The notes below the pieces were generated by a model. It searched no databases, was not told where the DNA came from, and saw only the letters and a list, made by a program, of their open reading frames with translations. Below, piece by piece: positions 3,590 through 56,940 of a DNA stretch of 64,000 nt (position 1 is the first letter of the stretch; the number at the start of each line of letters is the position of its first letter). A program made the translations under genes and the position numbers. The DNA comes from Octopus vulgaris. Taxonomy: Eukaryota. The DNA is taken from the NCBI GenBank assembly GCA_951406725.2, contig OX597829.1, positions 14,012,001 to 14,076,000 on the forward strand, given 5' to 3'.

Positions 3590-3811
3590 AAGTAAAAAAA
3601 TACTTCTGTACCACCGAATAGTCACAAAACTATTACAGACATTATAGGAAAAAATTATCAGCTAAATTTCGAAACTTGTACCAGGCTGACCAGCATTTAC
3701 TTCTTCTGACCCAGTAGAGGTAAGACATTATTATTGCTCACTCATATTGTTTTCCTATTATATCTGTAATAGTTTTATGACTATTCGCTGGTACAAAAGT
3801 ATTTTTTTACT
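3590..3811. repeat. Imperfect inverted repeat, ~70-bp arms (3590-3661 / 3741-3811)
   Basis: agtaaaaaaatacttctgtaccaccgaatagtcacaaaactattacaga vs tctgtaatagttttatgactattcgctggtacaaaagtatttttttact. Confidence 0.85.
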
Positions 3812-4206
3812 TTTTTGCGATTTTTCACATGCGTTCTAATTTTCCACCGTCTATCTCTAGAAAAGCCCTTTTTCTTAGTTCCCTCTCCGGTTATTCCTTA
3901 TTTGTACTGTTCTTTCTACTGTCTTTTCTTCATTTGTATTGCTTTTACGTCCTGTTCTCGTCACTTGTTTTACCCCTCTGCAAAAGAATTTTATTTAATT
4001 CCTTTTGCAGAAAGGACTGCTTCGGCCTGGCCGTGTTCTGTCCGAAACATGCATTGAGCCGAACCAGGGGCAGCTGATGAAGGGAAATTTTCCTTGTATT
4101 CTTTGTCTTGTACTCTGTTTTTTCGTTGTTAAAAAAAAGTCCGTTTCCTTGTTTGATTTTGTTTTCGTTTCTCGTTGGGTCCTACGTTTATTTGTAGTGT
4201 CCTGTA

Positions 4207-4331
<125 letters not shown>

Positions 4332-4522
4332 GCTTGTATATATACATGTAGATGTAAGTATGTACATATATGTATGTATATATGCATATATTTTATTTAT
4401 TTATTATATTGTTATTATATGACCGAACGCATGCGTCGTTTCTCTTCGTCTCTCTTCTCCAAGTAAGTTTATATACATATATATATCAAATGAAAAAATA
4501 ATAAACAGGACACAAAGGATGT

Positions 4523-4616
4523 CACGGTGCACATGTTTCGAGCTTTATAAAATAACTTATTCTTACATCAATGCATAATCAACATAACAGATAGTTTAAA
4601 GCCCTCTTCAGCCGCA
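4523..4616 (-). ncRNA. Hammerhead ribozyme motif with long stem II loop (degenerate at U16.1)
   Basis: Minus strand: UGCGG CUGAAGA GGGCUUUA...UAAAGCUC GAAA CAUGUG CA CCGUG. Confidence 0.65.
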
Positions 4617-4858
4617 TGCAATTGCTACACCAAAGACTTGTATCACATTATGAAAGGTTTGAGAAAGAATAATTGGTATTATTTATAATGGTAGGTAAAC
4701 TGAGTATCACTGAGAAAGTATGTTTGTAAATCTTCATAATCAAATAGGTGTACAGGGTATTATTGGACTCCAAAAATCCGTCCATACCCTTTTCTCACTC
4801 AATATAGAGTGAATACTGGGTAGATTCCGGTTGGGTTCATTCCTCTTGTAAGGGAAGG

Positions 4859-4949
<91 letters not shown>

Positions 4950-5414
4950 TAAATTTTAGGGTAGCAAAAGAATTCTAGAACAATTCTCCGCTACCAGCGG
5001 TCTAGCGTGAAAGAAAAATTACTCGATAGACTATATAATATACATTATATGTATATTATATAATATACATTATAGCGAGAAAGAAAAATTACTCAATAGA
5101 CTATATAATATACATTTAAACACATAAGAGATGGCCATAATAGGACATCTGACTCACTAGAAAGAGCAGTTAAACTCCAAACTACTAATAGTTGTAATTC
5201 TGAAATGGAAAGAGATATAAGCTGATGAAGGGGAATTTTCCTTGTATTGTTTGTCCTGTACTCTGTTTTTTCGTTGTTTAAAAAAAGTCCGTTTCCTTGT
5301 TTGTATTTATGTTTTCGTTTCTCGTTGTGTTCTATGTTTATTTGCATGTATATATGCATGTATATATACATGTAGATGTAAATATGTACTTATATGTATG
5401 TATATATGCATTTA

Positions 5415-5445
<31 letters not shown>

Positions 5446-5504
5446 ACTATATTTGTTCCACGTCCTCGCGTTGTTGTGTTTTTTGTGCTTTCTTGTTTGG
5501 ATTA

Positions 5505-5602
<98 letters not shown>

Positions 5603-6399
5603 TATATGTATGTATATATAATATTATATTATATTATATTATATTATATTATATTATATTATATTATATTATATTATTATTCATTGCGTTTTGGAAACTA
5701 CTCAATAGTGTTTGGATTAATGACTATTGAAAAGGTTGCAAGATGCAACGTAAATTATATTTTAAATATTTAAGTAAATGAGTAGAAACATTACTGGTGA
5801 AAGTGTAAAATTATAAGGAACTAAAAGAGAATGACTCTCCCCATGCATATTTTCTGTCTATGTTTGTCCCCTATCAGTGTTGGTTTCTTTACGTCCCCGT
5901 AAATTGGCAGTTCCGCAAAATAGAACACAGGAATAAGTACTGGTCTTTAAAAAAATAAAACCTGGACTCAATTTCTTCGACCAAAGCCTTCAAGGTGATA
6001 CTCCAGCATGACCGCAATCGAAAGTAACTGCAACAAGTAAAACAATAAAAAAATTTTTAAATACATAAACATGCATATATCATATATATATATATGTATA
6101 TCTGTATGCATACGCATATATAGATGACTATTTTTGTGCGCTTGTGTTCAAGCAGGAATATGTGTGTGTGTACGTGTGTTTGTTTGTGCGTCTGCGTGTG
6201 TGTGTGCGTGTGCGTGTGCGTGTGTGTGTGTGTGTCTGTGTCTGTGTGTGTGTGTGTGCTAATAATAATATTTTATAAGCTTAAAGCTTATAAGCGTTCC
6301 CCGGGCATTGATTTAGGATATCTGGTAAGCGGCTAGTTATTTGGTGAAAATCGGCACCGCTTACCAAATATTCGTTATAAATGTATACGTAAATTTGTG

Positions 6400-6500
<101 letters not shown>

Positions 6501-6546
6501 CAAGTCAAAAATAGAAAATGCTAAAATAATTTTATAGTGAACATTT

Positions 6547-6584
6547 CAGTACCGGTTTCGGTCATTTTGAGACCTTTTCAACTG
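6547..6584 (-). ncRNA. Minimal hammerhead ribozyme, U3-A8 core variant
   Basis: Minus strand: CAG UUGAAAA GGUC UCAAAAU GACC GAAA CCGG UA CUG; second copy at 55916-55952 (+). Confidence 0.8.
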
Positions 6585-6784
6585 TAACGATTAAATAATT
6601 AAATTTAGAAAAATTAGAAGAAAAGTTTTTTTAAAAGAATATTTCTATAGTAGTGTTCAGATTTAAGTGGCATTCTGCCTTTCTCTGACTCCCTTGTTTG
6701 CACTTGTGTGTTCGAGGTAGTTATATATATATATATATATATATGTAAGTGTATATATAAAATATATATATATATATATATATC

Positions 6785-7002
6785 TTTTTTTTTTACTTCT
6801 TTTCGTTATTCTACTGCGGCCATACTGGAGCACCGCCTTTAGTCGAGCAAATTGACACCAGAACTTATTCTTTCGAAGCCTAGTATTTATTCTATCGGTC
6901 TCTTTTGCCGAACCGCTAATTTACGGAGAGGTAAACACACCACCATCAGTTGTCAAGTGATGTTGGGGACAAACGCAGACATGCAAACATTTTCACACAC
7001 AG

Positions 7003-7063
<61 letters not shown>

Positions 7064-7228
7064 AGACCAGCTTTTCTTTGAATTTCCGTCTACCAAGTCC
7101 ACTCACAAGGCTGTGGTAGGCCGAAGTTATGGTAGTAGACACTTTCCCAAAGTGCCACGCAGTGGGACTGAACCCGGAACCATATAGTTGGTAAGCCAGC
7201 TACTTACCGCATAGTTACTCCTGCACCT
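6785..7228 (-). mobile_element. SINE family 1, full length, diverged
   Basis: Head, internal (TA)/(TG) tract and tail all match the family. Confidence 0.9.
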
Positions 7229-7241
7229 ATGTGTGTATATG

Positions 7242-7309
<68 letters not shown>

Positions 7310-7552
7310 TGTATATATACTTGTAGATGTAAATGTGTACATATATGTATGTATATATGCATATATTTTATTTATATATATATATATATATATTTGTATG
7401 TATATGTATGCATATATGTATATGTATGTATATATATATATATGTATATATATGTATATATACATATATGTATATATACATACATATATATATAAATATA
7501 TATATATATGTGCATGCATATATAAATATATATGCATGTGTATGTTTGTATG

Positions 7553-7666
<114 letters not shown>

Positions 7667-7938: not shown

Positions 7939-8720
<782 letters not shown>

Positions 8721-15666: not shown

Positions 15667-15918
<252 letters not shown>

Positions 15919-21987: not shown

Positions 21988-22228
21988 GTATAAATTGAGG
22001 ATATAATCAAGAAAATGATAAACAAGTGGCCAGCGTATAAAAACCACCATATCGGTAAAATTAATATTTAAGTATATAATTGAAAATATACAGAGATGTA
22101 CTTGCATAGTAAGTGACCTGATCTGAGATCGTGTGGTGGAATGAAAACAATTGCAGCGTGGAAGGTGTTTATAAGCCATTTAAGAAACACACGAAAACCG
22201 TTAGATTCACTTGAGCATTTAAATTTAA

Positions 22229-22279
22229 TTTGTCAAAATATTTTCGTCGCTTTGAGACCGCGACCTGTTCACTGACAAA
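22229..22279 (-). ncRNA. Minimal hammerhead ribozyme, G3-C8 core variant
   Basis: Minus: UUUGUCA GUGAACA G GUCGC GGUCUCAAA GCGAC GAAA AUAU UU UGACAAA; second copy 56322-56375 (+); flanked by inverted duplication 22148-22192 / 22298-22342. Confidence 0.8.
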
Positions 22280-22575
22280 AATATCGTGCTAAATATCGTG
22301 TGTTTCTTAAATGGCTTATAAACACCTTCCACGATGCAATTGAAAATGTACAATTATAATTAAGGGCGCTGGAGGGACAACGCCAATACGCTAGAAGCAC
22401 GTGTCAAATTTCTTCAAACCTCTCTAAATTTGTTCTCCGTTTTGTGCAAGACAGAATACCTTATATATATACATGCAAATTTGTGCTTCCCCTTTGCCGA
22501 TGCGCATAGTTCGGAGGGCGTGGGCACGCAATAACAGGTCGTCAAACGATGGTTGGAGGGGGGAGACACACAAAT

Positions 22576-25879: not shown

Positions 25880-27138
25880 CGAGGGGCGTTCAATAAGTAA
25901 TGACCCTGACCCACTTGCAGTTGTTTGATCTAGCTGAAATTTTGCATGTGCACTTACTTGTATCTCTACGGATTAAGTGGTGAATTACAGCTCTGAACTA
26001 ATTGTGGTTTCTGATTTACAGGTGTTTGAACTGAGTCAAGTGTGAAATGGAGCCTGTTGAGTGTCGAGCAGTGATCTGGTTTTTGTATTTGAAAGGACGC
26101 ACACCACGGGAGACTTTTGATGAAAGGAAAGTAACTTATGGTGATGATGCCCCATCATATGACCTTGTAAAACGCTGGCATTGTGAATTCAAACATAGTC
26201 GGAACAGCTGCCAGATCTGGTCGTCCCCTTCTGCCGTTGATGAGATGTCTGTCCGTCAAGTTGAGGCTGCCATTTTGGAAGGTCAACGCATAACTATTCG
26301 CCAAATAGCCCATAAGGTCAAGATTAGTACCGGGTCTGTGGAAACTATCATTCATGACCATTTGCATATGCAAAAGGTGTCTGCCAGATGGATTTCCAGG
26401 TTGCTCACACCTTTCCAGAAGCAAGAACGCGTTGAGTGCTCGAGGATGAATTTGGAGATGTGCCAAGAAGATGAGTCAACATTTTTCAAAAGACTGATCA
26501 CACAGGATGAAACCTGGGTCCATCACTATGATCCATAGACCAAAGCCCAGTCAATGCAGTGAAAGCACCGTGACTCACCTCCTCCAAAGAAGGCAAGGGT
26601 GCAGCCCTCCGCTGACAAGGTTATGCTCACAGTCTTCTGGCACCAGGACGGAGTAGTGATGACAGATTTCCTGGCAAAGGGTACCACAATTACAGGAGCC
26701 TATTATGCTTCACTTTTGAGGAAATTAAGAGAAGCTATCAAAATCAAGAGGCGGGGCAAGATCAGCAAAGGCATCCTCCTCCTGCAGGACAACGCTCCGG
26801 TCCACAACTCGCGTGTCGCCAGATCAGAAGCACAGGCGTGCAGCTATGAACTCCTCCCCTTGCACCCTCTGATTTTCACCTCTTCCCAGCCATGAAGTTG
26901 ATTTTGAAAGGAAAGCGTTTTCCAGATGATGCAGCCTTGATTTCTGAAGTCACGTCGTGGTTGGAGGACCAAGCTGGGGTCTTCTACAAAAGCGGTCTCC
27001 AGAGCTGTATCAAACGATGGGAGAAATGCATAACTCTGGGTAGTTCCTATGTAGGAAAAGACTAATATCTGTGCCAAGTGTCGTTGCTCTACTTCTATGG
27101 GAAGTGGGTCAGGGGCATTACTTATTGAACGCCCCTCG
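25880..27138 (+). mobile_element. Full-length mariner (D,D34D; irritans-like) DNA transposon, 1259 bp, transposase pseudogenised
   Basis: ~37-bp TIRs cgaggggcgttcaataagtaatg(a/c)ccctgacccactt, TA on both sides; ORF from 26047 with WISRLLT, ITQDETWVHHYDP, LLQDNAPVH, LAPSDFHLF; stops at ~26536/26560 and the HPPYSPD segment deleted. Confidence 0.96.
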
Positions 27139-36904: not shown

Positions 36905-38190
<1,286 letters not shown>

Positions 38191-38191
<1 letters not shown>

Positions 38192-41100
38192 CTTCGTAAC
38201 ACAATGTAGGTAAAAATGCACCAGAGTCTTTAGTCACAACAAGGACCTCAGACAGATAATAGTTTCCTTAAGATGTGCACTGTGTCCAATAAGGCAGCTT
38301 TTTGCAAGAAATCAATCTTTCATGGGATTTCCAGTTGCCTTAAGTAGTCTTGAAATTTCAATGGAAATGAGCCCAACGCTCTAATCACCACTGGTATCAC
38401 TTTTACATTACCCTCTCGCATTCCATACAGTCTTGCCATTTCTACTTTCAGTTCATAGTACTTGGTGATTTTTTCAACCTCTTCACTCACAACATTCATG
38501 TCATTTGGTATGGCTACATCAATGATCTGACAGTATCTATCGCTCTTACTCAATATGACAATAACCGGCCAACAATGTTCGATTACATGATCCATCTGAA
38601 AATCATAGTCCCAGAGTATCGTTACTTTTCCATCCTCCTGCATAACTTTACTAGGTACATGCTCATACTAGTTCTCTCTTACTTCATATTGGTATTTATG
38701 GCATAAGATCCTGACGGTGCCTGTATTCTTTTTTTGCAAGACTCTCATATCCACTAACCAACTGGGTCATATTTTCCACACTCTTTCCACAGAGTCTGCA
38801 TTTCTGGACGTCAGAAGTTTTATAGATATTATACTTCATCGAATTGGTAGCCAGAGCCTGGGTTTGTGCAGCAATGATCAGACTTGCGGCGATACGCCTC
38901 AAATCACTTCGCTCAATCCATGCCCACGATGCTGTATTATCCTTAACGCTTTGTGTATTCCTTTCAAACTGTCCATGCATTCCCATTTCATGGTTTTCTT
39001 TTCTCTTCTCCCCAACTCTTTGGTTAAACTATGCCATCCCCATCATTTTATCTGCATTTACACCCATATGTTTCGCTGCATATTGCAGCAGGTCTTCATC
39101 ACTATTTATCAAATACTCGGCAAGCGTTCTCCTTTCATTCCTTTGGTCTATACTAATTAGTCTTCTGCCACCATTCTTTCTTTTCATAGACAGTCTATTT
39201 GCGTTTGCTTTATGGTGCAGCGCCCCATGCAGGGTCATCAATTTCTCACCCTTCTATTCAGTGTTGATATTTACTTCTTAGTCCATTTCAGGATAGACGC
39301 ACTATCTCTGACCACCGCAATTGCCCAGATATTCATTGCAGTAATCGAATTTTTGGCACTAAGGTTGGATTTCAACACCATCTTCAGCCTTTTTTGATAC
39401 GCTTCGTTGACCTTAACTTTCATTTTTCTGTGTAGAATGTCATCCAGCTCCAAAATCCCTAAATATCTATACCCACTACTGTCTGGTCCACCCACGGTCT
39501 CTCCTGATGGTAACCGCAATCCTCTGCAGGCTGGTTTCTTCCCTCTATTCATATTAAGTACTGAGCATTTGCTGATCCCAAATTCCATACCGATGTCCCT
39601 ACCACATTTCTACACTGTTTTGGTTAAGGAATCTATCTGATTTTCAGATTTCTCAAACCATTTCAGGTCATCCATAAACAGAAGATGGTTCAATAATGGC
39701 TCTTCTTCCCGCATAGGTAACCCATGTTAACTTTCCTAAGTGTCATTGTTATGGGTATTACTGTAATTAAAAAAGTAACGGAGAAAACGAGTCACGTTGG
39801 AAGATTCCCCTTTTAATATTAACTTCTCTAAGGAATACATTACTTGAATACAATTTGGTTTGCCACTTTTTTATGCCATGCATCCGAAAATTTGTCAGGT
39901 TGTCAGCAATGCCAAACATCTGCAGGCATTCAACGATCCAAGAATGAGACATCATATCAAATGCCTTCCTAAAGCCAATCCAAGTCATTGATATGTTTGT
40001 ATGTTGTTTTTTACAATGCCTCAAAACTGCTTTATCGATGACTAGGTGATCCTTGGCACCCTGAGAACTCTTCCTACATCCTTTTTGTTCCTTTGGTAGT
40101 ATTTCTTCCTGTGCCGGGAAGGTGTATATCTTTGCCGCACATATTCCAGTGAGTATTTTCCAGATTATGTTTAGGCATGCTATGGGACGGTAGTTTCCCA
40201 CAGTATTCTCCTTTCTTCTGTCTTTCATTACAAGTGATGTCCTCCCAGTCACCATCCACGAGGGGACTGTACCTTTCTGGACACATTCATTCAATTGGAC
40301 TGCTAGTCTTTCATGCACCGTGTGGTATCTCTTCAGCCAGAAGCCATGAATCCGATCTGGTCCGGGGTATTTCCAGTTAGGCACTTTACCCACTTTACCC
40401 GTGCTTATGACAATATTCCTTTCTTTCTTTCCTCCTTGTAATTCTGTCTTGATAGTTCCTATCCACATTGCAGCCCTTTTATGCACCACATTGTTTCCCC
40501 ATAATCCGCTCCAGAACTCCTTGGCTTCATTTGCATCAGGAGCAACATTTTCCTCTCTGTCTCCTAACGTTCGGAAGAATTGCTTCGAGTTATTTTTGAA
40601 CAAACTGTTCTCGAATCTTCTGATCTTCTGGCTCTTTAATCATGATCCTCTGTTTTAACTACATAAAACCAATTCTTCCGTATTTTATGTTTCTTCTCTA
40701 ATTTTTCTCGGTCGCTTTTTTTCCCATTTTTCCAGTTTCCTCTTAACCATTGCTCAATTTTTCCTAGATCTTGCCTTGCCTGCATTATGTCCCTTTCCAT
40801 GCGTCGTTTCCACCATGATTATTTTGCTCCACCATTTTTTATTCACTTAAGTTGTAATTTCTCCTCAACAAGTTGCGTAATAGCTCGGAGAATATTCCCT
40901 GTTTGTGTTATGTTCTCCGTCTGGATGTATGGTATGACAGTATTTTTACTTTTGTGTTACATTATTTATCATACTCCTATATACTCTTCTCATATTCATG
41001 GAGCTTTTTTTCTTCTGGAGCATTCAGTCTGTGAGTCGTCTTTGAATTTCAAGCAATTCATTATCTAGTTGGTTCATTTCCCCTGCATGTCTACCCACCA

Positions 41101-41640
41101 CAGTGTCTGGGTTCACTGTATAACGTTCCAGTTCCTCATCCTTAACAGCCCCATCACTATTCCCCTGTTCCTCCTATCTACTCTTCTCCCTGCTTTCAAC
41201 TCCGACCATCCTTTGTATCCCATCCTAGATATTTCTACTTCAATTAAGTAACTCTTCCTTCTAATCACTCTCACTTGGTTCATCAGTTTATTTTCTGACA
41301 TTGAACACATGTCCTTTTCCATCCAAAATTTCAAGGTAAGTCGGCCTACTCTGCGACTTCTTTCCACCTTTGCTCTTCCATGACATTCAGTTAGTGTATC
41401 GTACTCTTCCTTCGTCTACTTCTGTTTTTGCGCACACCGTGTATGTGATCTGTAGTGACATACCGACTGCCCGAGGCCAGATCACTGCCCCTCATGCGGG
41501 TGGTTTCGGACGTGCCATGATCGGCTATACCTTCATTCTCGGCGTTAATTCTTCCTTGTTGTGTTGCATCATGATTTCATGTGTCGTTCGTGGGGTTCCC
41601 ACGAGTGTTGTTATTGAGATCTCATCTCTCTCTTCCACTC
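38191..41640 (-). mobile_element. Near full-length decayed R4/NeSL-type RLE retrotransposon of a second family
   Basis: RT motifs PGPDRIHGFWLK, NYRPIACLN, EQKGCRK, GIFQRDSFSPLLF, HLLFMDDLK, YRYLGILE; CRLCGK and ILWD RLE region; many frameshifts; 5' limit approximate. Confidence 0.9.
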
Positions 41641-41727
41641 TTTATTTGTATACACATGTGCTCATGTATGTACATACACATATATATATAAATATTTTAC
41701 TTGCATTGTGTCACCTCCATAAACACA

Positions 41728-44004
<2,277 letters not shown>

Positions 44005-44030
44005 TCATCATTATTATTATTATTATTATT

Positions 44031-47052: not shown

Positions 47053-47605
47053 TATATAAATAGATACATACACACATGTATATGTGTATATATAAATACA
47101 CACACATACACACACACACGCAGAACACGCATGCGTCATACATATTACATGTATACAAACATATGAATATGCACATATAAATACCCACAATAATACATAT
47201 ATAACATGCACAATACACATATCACATATCATGCCCACACATACGCCTATGATGTGCATTTCATACAAATGCATCTACACACATATATAAGCACGCAGAC
47301 ATATCGCGCACATTACAAATGAAGCTGAAAATTTCGTGGCTTTGGTTTAAAAGAAAACACAAGAGGATCAATTGATTATCATTTTATTCAACATAACCCC
47401 GTCTCAGATTCACACTCTTATTGCAGCAGTCCTTCAGATTTTCTAAGGCTTGTTAAAGAACTCGGAAGGTTTAGCCTCGAACCAGGTCTTTCGCGAAGCG
47501 TTTAAAGCAAGGAACTTTTCACATACATATCAAAAAACTTCTCGCACACACGCACTATATTCCTACAGGTAAATTCTCCTCAGCTTCATCCTTGTCATGT
47601 CACCA

Positions 47606-47980
47606 ACTGAAAGAAGCCCGTCGTATATATGTATGTATATAGGCGCAGGAATGGCTGTGTGGTAAGTAGCTTGCTAACCAACCACATGGTTCCTGGTTCA
47701 GTTCCACTGCGTGGCATCTTGGGCAAGTGTCTTCTGCTATAGCCCCGACCGACCAATGCCTTGTGAGTGGATTTGGTAGGCGGAAACTGAAAGAAGCCCG
47801 TCGTATATATGTATATTAGGCGCAGGAGTGGCTGTGTGGTAAGTTCCTTGCTAACCAACCACATGGTTCCGGGTTCAGTCCCACTGCGTGGCATCTTGGG
47901 CAAGTGTCTTCTGCTATAGCCCCGGGCAGACCAATGCCTTGTGAGTGGATTTGATAGACGGAAACTGAAAGAAGCCTGTC

Positions 47981-48024
<44 letters not shown>

Positions 48025-48593: not shown

Positions 48594-49145
48594 ATCATCA
48601 TCATCATTGTTCGACCGTGGTCGAGACAATCGAAGTTACCATGCTACGGCAGACTTCACGGTCCATCATGGCATTACGGCATTGTGGATGCCTGATGTAA
48701 TCTCCAGGGTAGGAGATTGTGCGCTCTCTGGTATCTCGAGTAGATGGCTTCCAGAGGAGAAGAGTAGAAATTGCCTCGTTTTCAGCTCTACAACAATGTC
48801 TCCTACCTTTCACAAGAGATGACACAGGTGGTAGTTTCCCATATATTTGCATTTTGGTTGGATGACGCTTCCACGAGAGATTTTGAGCTCTCATAAGGAG
48901 GCGAATGTAGGTTCCATACAACCACCTCTCAAGCTTCTTTGATAACGTCCAGGTTTCTGAGCCATATAATAGAATTGGTTCGACTGTGGCTTTGAAGATT
49001 TCAAGTTTGAAGTCTCTACTTAGATTTGATGACCAGATCTTATGCATGTCATTACAGGCTGACCAGGCCATACCCTTTCTAGTTAGAAAATCTTTTCCAG
49101 ATGATGATATGTATGACCCAAGATATTTGTAATCAGAAACTTGTT
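48594..49145 (-). mobile_element. 5'-truncated RTE-type LINE with (ATG)n tail
   Basis: DYKYLGSYI, FKATVEPILLYGSETWTL, RLLMRAQNLSWKRH; tail catcatcatcat on +. Confidence 0.88.
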
Positions 49146-49645
49146 TGCATGATGTGCACACACAAACACTGTCCCACAATATTTCCTCGCTGCTGAGCTC
49201 ACTGCTTGAGAAAATTGTCTTTAGTGCAGATGAGCATTACTATTTTTTTTTATATTTACCTGTTGTTTATGTTGTACTTATTACTACTGTCGCTGTTTAC
49301 GTAGTATTGAAAGAGGAGGAGCTCCCACTTTTACATTTCTCAAGATGGCAGAACTTTGTCAACTAGTCTTGGCTAACACATCTACTCTTTTACTCTTTTA
49401 CTTGTTTCAGTCATTTGATTGTGGCTATGCTGGAGCACCGACTGATAGCAAGGACCACTGTTTTAGGGACAAGGAAGGGGGTAGTTAATACCAGTGGCCC
49501 TAATACTTGACCGGTATTTTATTTTATCGATCTCGAAAGAATGAAATGCAAAGTTTACCTCGCAGGGATTTGAAATAATAACAAGAAGAAGAAGAAGAAG
49601 AAGAAGAAGAAGAAGAAGAAGAAGAAGAAGAAGAAGAAGAAGAAG

Positions 49646-54138: not shown

Positions 54139-54762
54139 TGGGATAGGGTTTTAGGTAAATAAGGAGATTCTCACTTATACCTATGCACATATGTATACAT
54201 ATATACACACGCATACAAACATATACATATACATACACACATACATACACACACATATATACATATACATATATATACACTTACACATACATATACATAT
54301 CTACACATACACATATATGTATACATACACTCACTCACATGCATACACGTATACACACATGTATATATACACACACACGACAACACATACATATACACAC
54401 AGAAAAATATATATACACATACACACACATACTCACATACACGCATACACACATGCGTGTATGTGAGTATGTGTGTGTATGTGTATATATATTTTTCTGT
54501 GTGTATATGTATGTGTTGTCGTGTGTGTGTATATATACATGTGTGTATACGTGTATGCATGTGAGTGAGTGTATGTATACATATATGTGTATGTGTAGAT
54601 ATGTATATGTATGTGTAAGTGTATATATATGTATATGTATATATGTGTGTGTATGTATGTGTGTATGTATATGTATATGTTTGTATGCGTGTGTATATAT
54701 GTATACATATGTGCATAGGTATAAGTGAGAATCTCCTTATTTACCTAAAACCCTATCCCCCT

Positions 54763-56082: not shown

Positions 56083-56321
56083 TTGGATAGATAGATAGAT
56101 AGATATAGATTTACATATATATAGATATACATATATATATATATACAAATATGTGTGTGTGTATAGTAGAATAGTTAGCGAGCAATTCTAGGGCGGGCAA
56201 GACTATGATCAGAAGCGAAAGAACATGTCCCTGATTGTAAAGATACAGCGGAATCCTTGGCTTCCACAATTGTTAGCATGTAACAGTAGGTGTTACGGGA
56301 GAGAGAGATGCAACACGAAAT

Positions 56322-56375
56322 TTTGTCAGTGAACAGGTCGCTGTCCCCAAAGAGCGACGAAAATATTTTGGCAAA
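56322..56375 (+). ncRNA. Minimal hammerhead ribozyme, G3-C8 variant
   Basis: UUUGUCA GUGAACA G GUCGCU GUCCCCAAAG AGCGAC GAAA AUAU UU UGGCAAA. Confidence 0.8.
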
Positions 56376-56531
56376 TTAAATTTAAATGTTGAAGTGAACC
56401 TAAAGGTTTTTGTGTGTTTCGTAAATGGCTTATAAACACCTTCCACGCTGCAATTGTTTTCGTTCCAGCACACTATCTCAGATCAAGTCACATGCAAGCA
56501 CATGAATATGCACAATACATGCATACAGATG

Positions 56532-56569
<38 letters not shown>

Positions 56570-56700
56570 CATATGCATACACACACATATATACATACAC
56601 ACACATGTATACATACATGTATACACACAAACACTGACCCACTCACATGCGCAAAAACAGACAAAAGGGAACGCAGTGTAAATAACGGACAGAGTCAAGA

Positions 56701-56737
56701 CTATTGAAAAGGTTGCAAGACGCAACGAAAATTTTAG
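56701..56737 (+). ncRNA. Minimal hammerhead-like motif, second U3-A8 family
   Basis: CUA UUGAAAA G GUUGC AAGAC GCAAC GAAA AU UU UAG. Confidence 0.65.
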
Positions 56738-56886
56738 AAAATAAAAATAAGAAATAAGTGGAAATTTTACCGGTGAGTGTGTTAAATAATAAGGCACTAA
56801 AAGAGAATGACTCTCCCCAGACACAACAGAATATGCTTCAACACACGAACTCATATAAAGAATCTTGCAGAGCAAATCCCAAAACG

Positions 56887-56940
<54 letters not shown>

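Follow-up and report, generated by a model that had tools for sequence, protein, structure and literature searches.

Two sites in a 64,000-nucleotide stretch of the Octopus vulgaris genome (contig OX597829.1, positions 14,012,001 to 14,076,000 of the forward strand; the window) resemble a hammerhead ribozyme in which the bases of the tertiary 3-8 pair are exchanged, giving G3-C8 in place of C3-G8. The question raised by this locus is whether such an inverted core is a natural state of a hammerhead and, if it is, whether the RNA cuts. In the catalytically active structure C3 is Watson-Crick paired with G8, and a G8C mutant regains part of its activity when C3G is added (PMC8495972, PMC3884650). 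In the sequence-only reading it was taken as established that compensatory swaps at 3-8 restore activity in vitro; rescue has been published, but it is only partial (PMC11167929, PMC3884650), and for the C3G/G8C double mutant the partial in vitro rescue is of a hammerhead from a Penelope-like element (PLE) that needs its protein to cleave (PMC11167929).

The reading that we favour, and consider probable, is that an octopus PLE carries the motif in its pseudo-LTR as a type I hammerhead of the minimal form, with its pair fixed as G3-C8, and that it is weakly self-cleaving, cutting after UU only as a dimer or with the protein of the element. That it is a working natural G3-C8 hammerhead, in a recently active retrotransposon with thousands of copies, whose cleavage is recorded as insertions at the scissile bond, is put forward more tentatively.

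Structure and detection of the motif

Copy 1 is on the minus strand at 22229-22279 (G3 at 22272, C8 at 22267), with the predicted cut after U17 at 22236. Copy 2 is on the plus strand at 56322-56375 (G3 at 56329, C8 at 56334, U17 at 56368). On re-reading, both contain exactly the elements first described for them, in the order 7-bp stem I, core GUGAACA, extra G, 5-bp stem II (GUCGC/GCGAC), GAAA, AUAU, UU and the second strand of stem I. They are 87% identical across 196 columns, and the differences remarked upon earlier were likewise seen: loop II is longer in copy 2, and an A to G change in its stem I retains a U-G pair, this being a recurrent variant found in 13 of 73 copies of the repeat family, here called family A. 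The GAAA (G12 A13 A14 A15.1) and the NUH triplet UUU are present in both window copies and in the majority of family A. The core reads G3 U4 G5 A6 A7 C8 A9 rather than C3 U4 G5 A6 N7 G8 A9; judged by its letters, the family A motif has every sequence feature of a hammerhead save the literal C3 and G8. An extra nucleotide does follow A9, although the analogy first drawn for it, with viroid hammerheads, fits less well than the PLE minimal hammerhead, in which it is the norm (PMC4209133).

The 7-bp stem I and the 5-bp stem II are predicted to fold, with z-scores of about -2.5. Reading of the sequence gives an A15.1-U16.1 pair with the palindromic AUAU; among the predicted dimers, the one joined by a 6-bp intermolecular stem III did not have the lowest energy. 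In the predicted fold G3 also pairs with U17, lengthening stem I; this pair competes with G3-C8 and counts against a weak ribozyme. Both it and the parent element had previously been overlooked.

Descriptors based on CUGANGA miss the motif, as had been expected, and Rfam does so too. No hammerhead was among the 5 matches, with E up to 10, from a 351-nt scan around copy 1. For the whole window, the 150 Rfam matches listed (a further 218 being lower) are all microsatellite-driven and sub-threshold, and include no hammerhead.

Copy number and variation within family A

A pattern free at positions 3, 7 and 8 has 7,079 matches in the genome and none with the reversed control, therefore the motif is not a chance occurrence. 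The G3-C8 pair, present in 95 of the 100 matches listed, is the consensus of the family, which does not have some other core; a natural hammerhead-type motif with this pair is thus borne out. The expectation that G3 and C8 would co-occur holds for these 95 matches, but fails where it would be most telling: only 21 matches have C3, and in all 21 C8 is kept, with G8 in none, so that there is no 3-8 covariation inside family A. In 62 copies chosen by their tails, G3 is present in 59 and C8 in 56, a constancy no higher than that of neighbouring letters, and contigs from four sequencing runs, each labelled as a different other organism, had no variants at 3% or more at either position. Copy-to-copy conservation was rejected as a sign of selection, since the variability of G3 and C8 is about that of the letters around them. 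What the two window copies show is thus descent and not selection, and what had been called conservation in two copies is common descent from a transposon master, the copies being neutral transposon stubs.

The parent Penelope-like element

The host is an octopus, since a protein that its source labels as Octopus vulgaris matches this genome at 100%. Both window sites are stubs of family A, a very common PLE of the octopus. One full-length parent, L290, has the G3-C8 motif in both pseudo-LTRs (at 1741 and 6002), flanking a reverse transcriptase (RT) and GIY-YIG frame, and its terminal repeats are identical at 1003 of 1004 positions. The motif is positioned approximately 1 kb behind the RT and GIY-YIG frame, and the next ORF begins approximately 56 nt beyond it; counted from the predicted cut, the distance is also some 56 nt. 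At another locus, L136, a frame of 839 aa was read by eye as having RT-like motifs, a linker of the form CX3CXXC and an end that is GIY-YIG-like. There is no Pfam match to this frame itself, while its 25 aligned homologues include 4 with an RVT_1 match and 3 with a GIY-YIG match; a PDB search returned two RT matches only, both weak. The element therefore has the organisation of an EN+ PLE, with a single ORF for an RT and, at the C-terminal end, a GIY-YIG endonuclease. In Neptune and Nematis the linker before the endonuclease is CX2-5CxxC (PMC8557442), and the CX3CXXC linker points to an element of this type, as far as can be judged from a motif and an RT tree free of named reference members.

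Pseudo-LTRs, a 5' inverted truncated copy and an optional tail, by which PLEs are recognised, are all present. There are two 3' ends inside the ORF start, with 33 of 80 copies ending at the longer one. The insertions have target duplications and inverted 5' pieces, and prefer (TA)n targets, hallmarks that have been described for PLEs (PMC8557442, PMC11167929). A MITE or Helentron-type element, considered because the termini are complementary over a short length and there is a hairpin at the 3' end, was rejected, the duplications being variable in length and the stub being the end of an RT-EN element.

There are 484 copies that extend upstream through a branch-point-like signal and then, across approximately 1 kb rich in microsatellites, reach the end of the reading frame. 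In L136 this branch-point- and acceptor-like signal is at 8401-8421, directly before the common 5' end of the stubs, and it is matched exactly 484 times. The signal could mark the end of an intron, as it does in Drosophila Penelope, or act as an initiator, or do both. Splicing of a first exon to the AG that precedes the motif was not supported, as a single extra G (18 of 33 junctions) is all that the sequences ahead of AGATG have in common.

Insertions and other repeats in the window

Stub 1 is approximately 200 nt long (22089-22290, minus strand) and is made up of a short leader, the hammerhead and the first 30 or so codons of the ORF, ending at the long tail site. Its ATG is at 22179 and the ORF start matches that of the full-length L203. 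Beside it, at 22296-22342 on the plus strand, is a 47-nt inverted and 5'-truncated copy of the stub's tail (97.9% identical to 22148-22194), a 5' inversion of the kind that is usual in PLE insertions (PMC8557442). A 10-bp target-site duplication flanks the whole, at 22078-22087 on the left and at 22338-22347 on the right, where it overlaps the end of the inverted piece. Stub 2 (56306-56503, plus strand) has the common 5' end, AGATG, and a tail that has decayed; its ORF start is at 56425.

One identical inversion junction is shared by ten copies (L019, L044, L046, L183, L245, L246, L249, L250, L269 and L286). Window copy 1 has 5' letters in common with this group. The shared junction suggests that the inverted-pair stub has itself been amplified as a non-autonomous sub-lineage.

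The window also contains a hammerhead motif of a sister PLE family, C, on the plus strand at 56701-56737. It has a U3-A8 pair (U3 at 56704), is followed by its ORF start at 56807, and is within a family C 3' end at approximately 56491-56900 that is identical at 352 of 388 positions to the 3' end of the RT/EN-bearing L291. Further family C motifs, damaged or truncated, are found at 5727 and 18196.

Other repeats in the window include fragments at 37216-44030 and 48604-49236, which we take to resemble non-LTR retrotransposon RT/endonuclease frames, and one at 26035-26538 that presumably resembles a mariner-type transposase. There are also a 177-bp tandem duplication of a SINE-like repeat (47605-47997), a near-perfect hairpin of approximately 95 nt (15795-15889) and a long, microsatellite-rich inverted repeat (54159-54740).

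Sister families and covariation at positions 3 and 8

Three further families have a motif of the same kind. Family B has the core CUGAUGC, with C3-G8 and C9, in all 54 of the motifs listed, at the same place in the element as in family A; its protein is 54% identical to that of family A, and frames of up to 1,312 aa are found. Family C has the core UUGAAAA, with U3-A8 in 95 of 100 among the matches listed, of 2,655. Family D has the core CUGAUGA, with C3 in 17 of 19 copies and G8 in 17 of 19, and its inner stem I (GUCA/UGAC) is the same as that of family A; its link to the clade is an ORF start like that of family B, with no RT tied to it. Common to the four are the extra nucleotide, which is mostly G, a stem II closed by a G-C pair, the GAAA and the UU. 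Each family has a Watson-Crick pair at positions 3 and 8: G-C in family A, C-G in families B and D, and U-A in family C.

The loss of A9 from family B indicates that the core of the clade is not strictly kept. L145 (G000:C5:115840523-115845895, minus strand) is a young family B element, with copies 99% identical, in which C9 replaces the conserved A9. A foreign relative, L345, also has C9, together with U3-A8. Another octopus repeat, represented by L303 and similar loci, has a canonical CUGAUGA hammerhead with CG or UG in loop III.

A descriptor free at positions 3 and 8 was used to search 73 metagenome loci with related RTs. The 23 sense matches comprise 11 U-A, 11 C-G, one A-G and no G-C, so that 22 of 23 are Watson-Crick, although many of these loci are close kin and do not represent 23 independent events. 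The controls gave no antisense matches and 0.05 matches per shuffle. The RT tree places A, B and C in one group without internal order; G3-C8 is called derived because it is rare, and not because of any order in the tree. The real support for the pair mattering is, on the sequences compared, this Watson-Crick covariation between families.

Evidence for and against cleavage

Of 80 copies selected by their tails, 53 begin between 42 and 62 nt upstream of the cut, 5 begin farther upstream and 3 begin within 5 nt of it; most templates were therefore uncut, as in vitro for PAc (PMC11167929). In 18 of 33 junctions an extra G stands before the common start, and it may be a reverse-transcribed cap, by analogy with LINE copies. 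To these 80 can be added 117 copies unselected for the cut, in which there are 2 breaks between -3 and +1, as background alone predicts. With 3 of 80 and 2 of 117 near the cut, these two sets say little about a break peak there.

A screen at the cut site itself took copies with a letter other than T just before the 3' product, giving 139 matches, with 98 distinct copies read among the 100 listed. Clean 5' breaks at the predicted cut account for 44 of the 98 and a further 8 are ambiguous through stem I microhomology; the remainder are 41 point changes and 5 deletions or duplications. The self-complementarity of stem I could favour template switches at the cut, and these 8 cases were set aside. 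Against an averaged background of approximately 0.3% per position (the 117 copies have 31 breaks in a span of 81 positions), the excess at the cut is roughly 2.5-12 times, the background being a rough average and the denominator an estimate of 3,775-7,583 eligible copies. Breaks exactly at the predicted cut hint, indirectly, at a trace of cleavage left in the insertions.

The favoured weak hammerhead would account for these observations as follows. Transcripts would start, capped, approximately 58 nt upstream of the cut site, and reverse transcription would begin within the first 90 or so nt of the ORF, usually copying uncut RNA to its 5' end. This copying would generate thousands of stubs of approximately 200 nt, like both of those in the window. 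A slow cut after UU, through an AAUAUU palindromic dimer or with protein help, would occur in a minority of transcripts, and the few percent of templates that had been cut would give copies beginning exactly at the scissile bond. The swap might, speculatively, be tolerable because the clade has U17, so that G3 meets only a G-U wobble competitor and not G-C; since U17 offers G3 only wobble competition, this may also be why the swap arose here. A G3-C8 mutant has been stated to do better with G17 than with C17, the data not being shown there (PMC3884650).

It is less likely, though still to be taken seriously, that the motif is descended from a hammerhead and has no useful cutting rate, its fold being kept or carried along for protein binding, promoter function or translation start, with the swap a relic. 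The uncut RNA behind most insertions, the G3-U17 wobble of the predicted fold and the toleration of A9C in family B are all in keeping with this. So are results from elsewhere: catalytic mutants of the PLE PAc (Poseidon of Anolis carolinensis) had no effect on insertion in vitro, its published account gives no RNA-seq reads ending at the PAc cut site (PMC11167929), and Naiads thrive without canonical hammerheads (PMC8557442). A relic does not, however, readily explain why, free position 7 apart, the conserved cores of A and D differ only at 3 and 8, and do so complementarily; a rough count made by hand suggests that two changes placed at random in the core would give this outcome in well under 1% of cases. 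Nor does it explain the three Watson-Crick pair types at 3-8 within the clade or the excess of breaks at the cut.

It is very improbable that the motif cuts efficiently in vivo, with tandem transcripts being processed as a matter of course to unit-length or circular RNA, as has been proposed for retrozymes. Such processing has been proposed for PLE hammerheads (PMC4209133), the palindromic AAUAUU stem III would suit dimers, and stems I and II are strong, but most copies retain the 42-62 nt upstream of the cut. Among the 30 best loci, one is a tandem array, L030 (G000:C27:32596326-32599525), with a period of approximately 426 bp and a unit made up of a family A stub with a damaged stem I plus unrelated sequence. 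Its repeated copies could be taken as processed tandem units; with approximately half of the unit unrelated and stem I damaged, it looks more like later amplification at the DNA level. No junction linking the tail to the cut site was listed in four contig sets guessed to be from RNA, which is a weak test. These four sets cover the motif, and contigs cannot show RNA ends; no RNA record was among the listed sequence sets containing the motif.

That the motif resembles a hammerhead by chance, being a hairpin of some SINE- or MITE-like repeat, could be argued from the lack of an Rfam hammerhead match around copy 1 and of 3-8 covariation inside family A. This can practically be dismissed, as sister PLEs have CUGAUGA or UUGAAAA cores at the same position and share the extra nucleotide, the closing G-C pair of stem II, GAAA and UU, and the motif belongs to an autonomous RT-EN element.

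Comparison with known hammerheads

The closest published relatives are the minimal hammerheads of PLEs (Cervera and de la Pena 2014, PMC4209133), which are slow in vitro and are thought to act as dimers (PMC4209133, PMC6765202). These share with family A the pseudo-LTR location, the extra nucleotide between A9 and G10.1, the G10.1-C11.1 pair, the palindromic 15.2-16.2 region, the NUH site, an AU-rich 3' flank and thousands of solo truncated copies. Family A differs from them in having G3-C8 where they have C3-G8 or natural U3-A8, in having G as the extra nucleotide where their consensus is H, and in a stem I of 7 bp rather than the usual 4-5 bp (PMC4209133).

Natural U3-A8 hammerheads have been published (Perreault et al. 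2011, PMC3088659; the Schistosoma Cercyon PLE, PMC4209133) and are also compensatory at the tertiary 3-8 pair. Octopus family C and 11 of the metagenome motifs are of this kind. The U3-A8 state requires two transitions and keeps the pyrimidine at 3 and the purine at 8, whereas G3-C8 requires two transversions and inverts the pair.

In PAc (Frangieh et al. 2024, PMC11167929), as in family A, the hammerhead adjoins the ORF start, and reverse transcription from two internal sites generates an optional tail. Cleavage is not needed for PAc insertion in vitro and uncut RNA is the main template (PMC11167929). The PAc swap is an engineered, partly active C3G/G8C mutant of a canonical core, whereas that of family A is the natural consensus. 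Animal non-LTR retrozymes (bioRxiv 10.64898/2026.07.22.740005) are likewise short, non-coding, hammerhead-bearing derivatives of PLE pseudo-LTRs. They are, however, head-to-tail tandem units, while family A stubs are dispersed monomers or inverted pairs; the window copies, being solo or inverted, are not retrozymes by this measure.

No natural G3-C8 was found in the literature searched, which did not include Lunse et al. 2017 on PLE hammerhead variants, Przybilski and Hammann 2007, or Nelson and Uhlenbeck 2008. A term search of supplement file 2 of PMC4209133 and the motif table of PMC8557442 gave none, and there was nothing in the available text of PMC10085705, PMC11014351, PMC6155905, PMC13282606 or bioRxiv 2026.07.22.740005. 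Within that literature the natural inverted G3-C8 is new, while the PLE setting, the minimal hammerhead, U3-A8 and the laboratory C3G/G8C rescue were already known; the novelty could be overturned by Lunse et al. 2017.

Significance

The family A motif is neither a new class of ribozyme nor a new mechanism, but an ordinary setting with one unusual core pair. It widens the natural range of hammerhead cores from C3-G8 and U3-A8 to an inverted pair found otherwise, in the literature searched, only as a laboratory rescue mutant, and thousands of such motifs in one genome escape both descriptor and Rfam searches. The clade is a natural allelic series (G-C, C-G, U-A and A9C) on near-identical scaffolds, available for kinetic comparison, and the break-point footprint is a way of asking, from sequence alone, whether PLE hammerheads cleave in vivo. 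Should family A prove to be a working hammerhead whose cuts are recorded in its insertions, those insertions would be evidence of cutting by PLE hammerheads in vivo, and a single octopus clade would be using three of the four Watson-Crick pairs at the 3-8 position of the active site.
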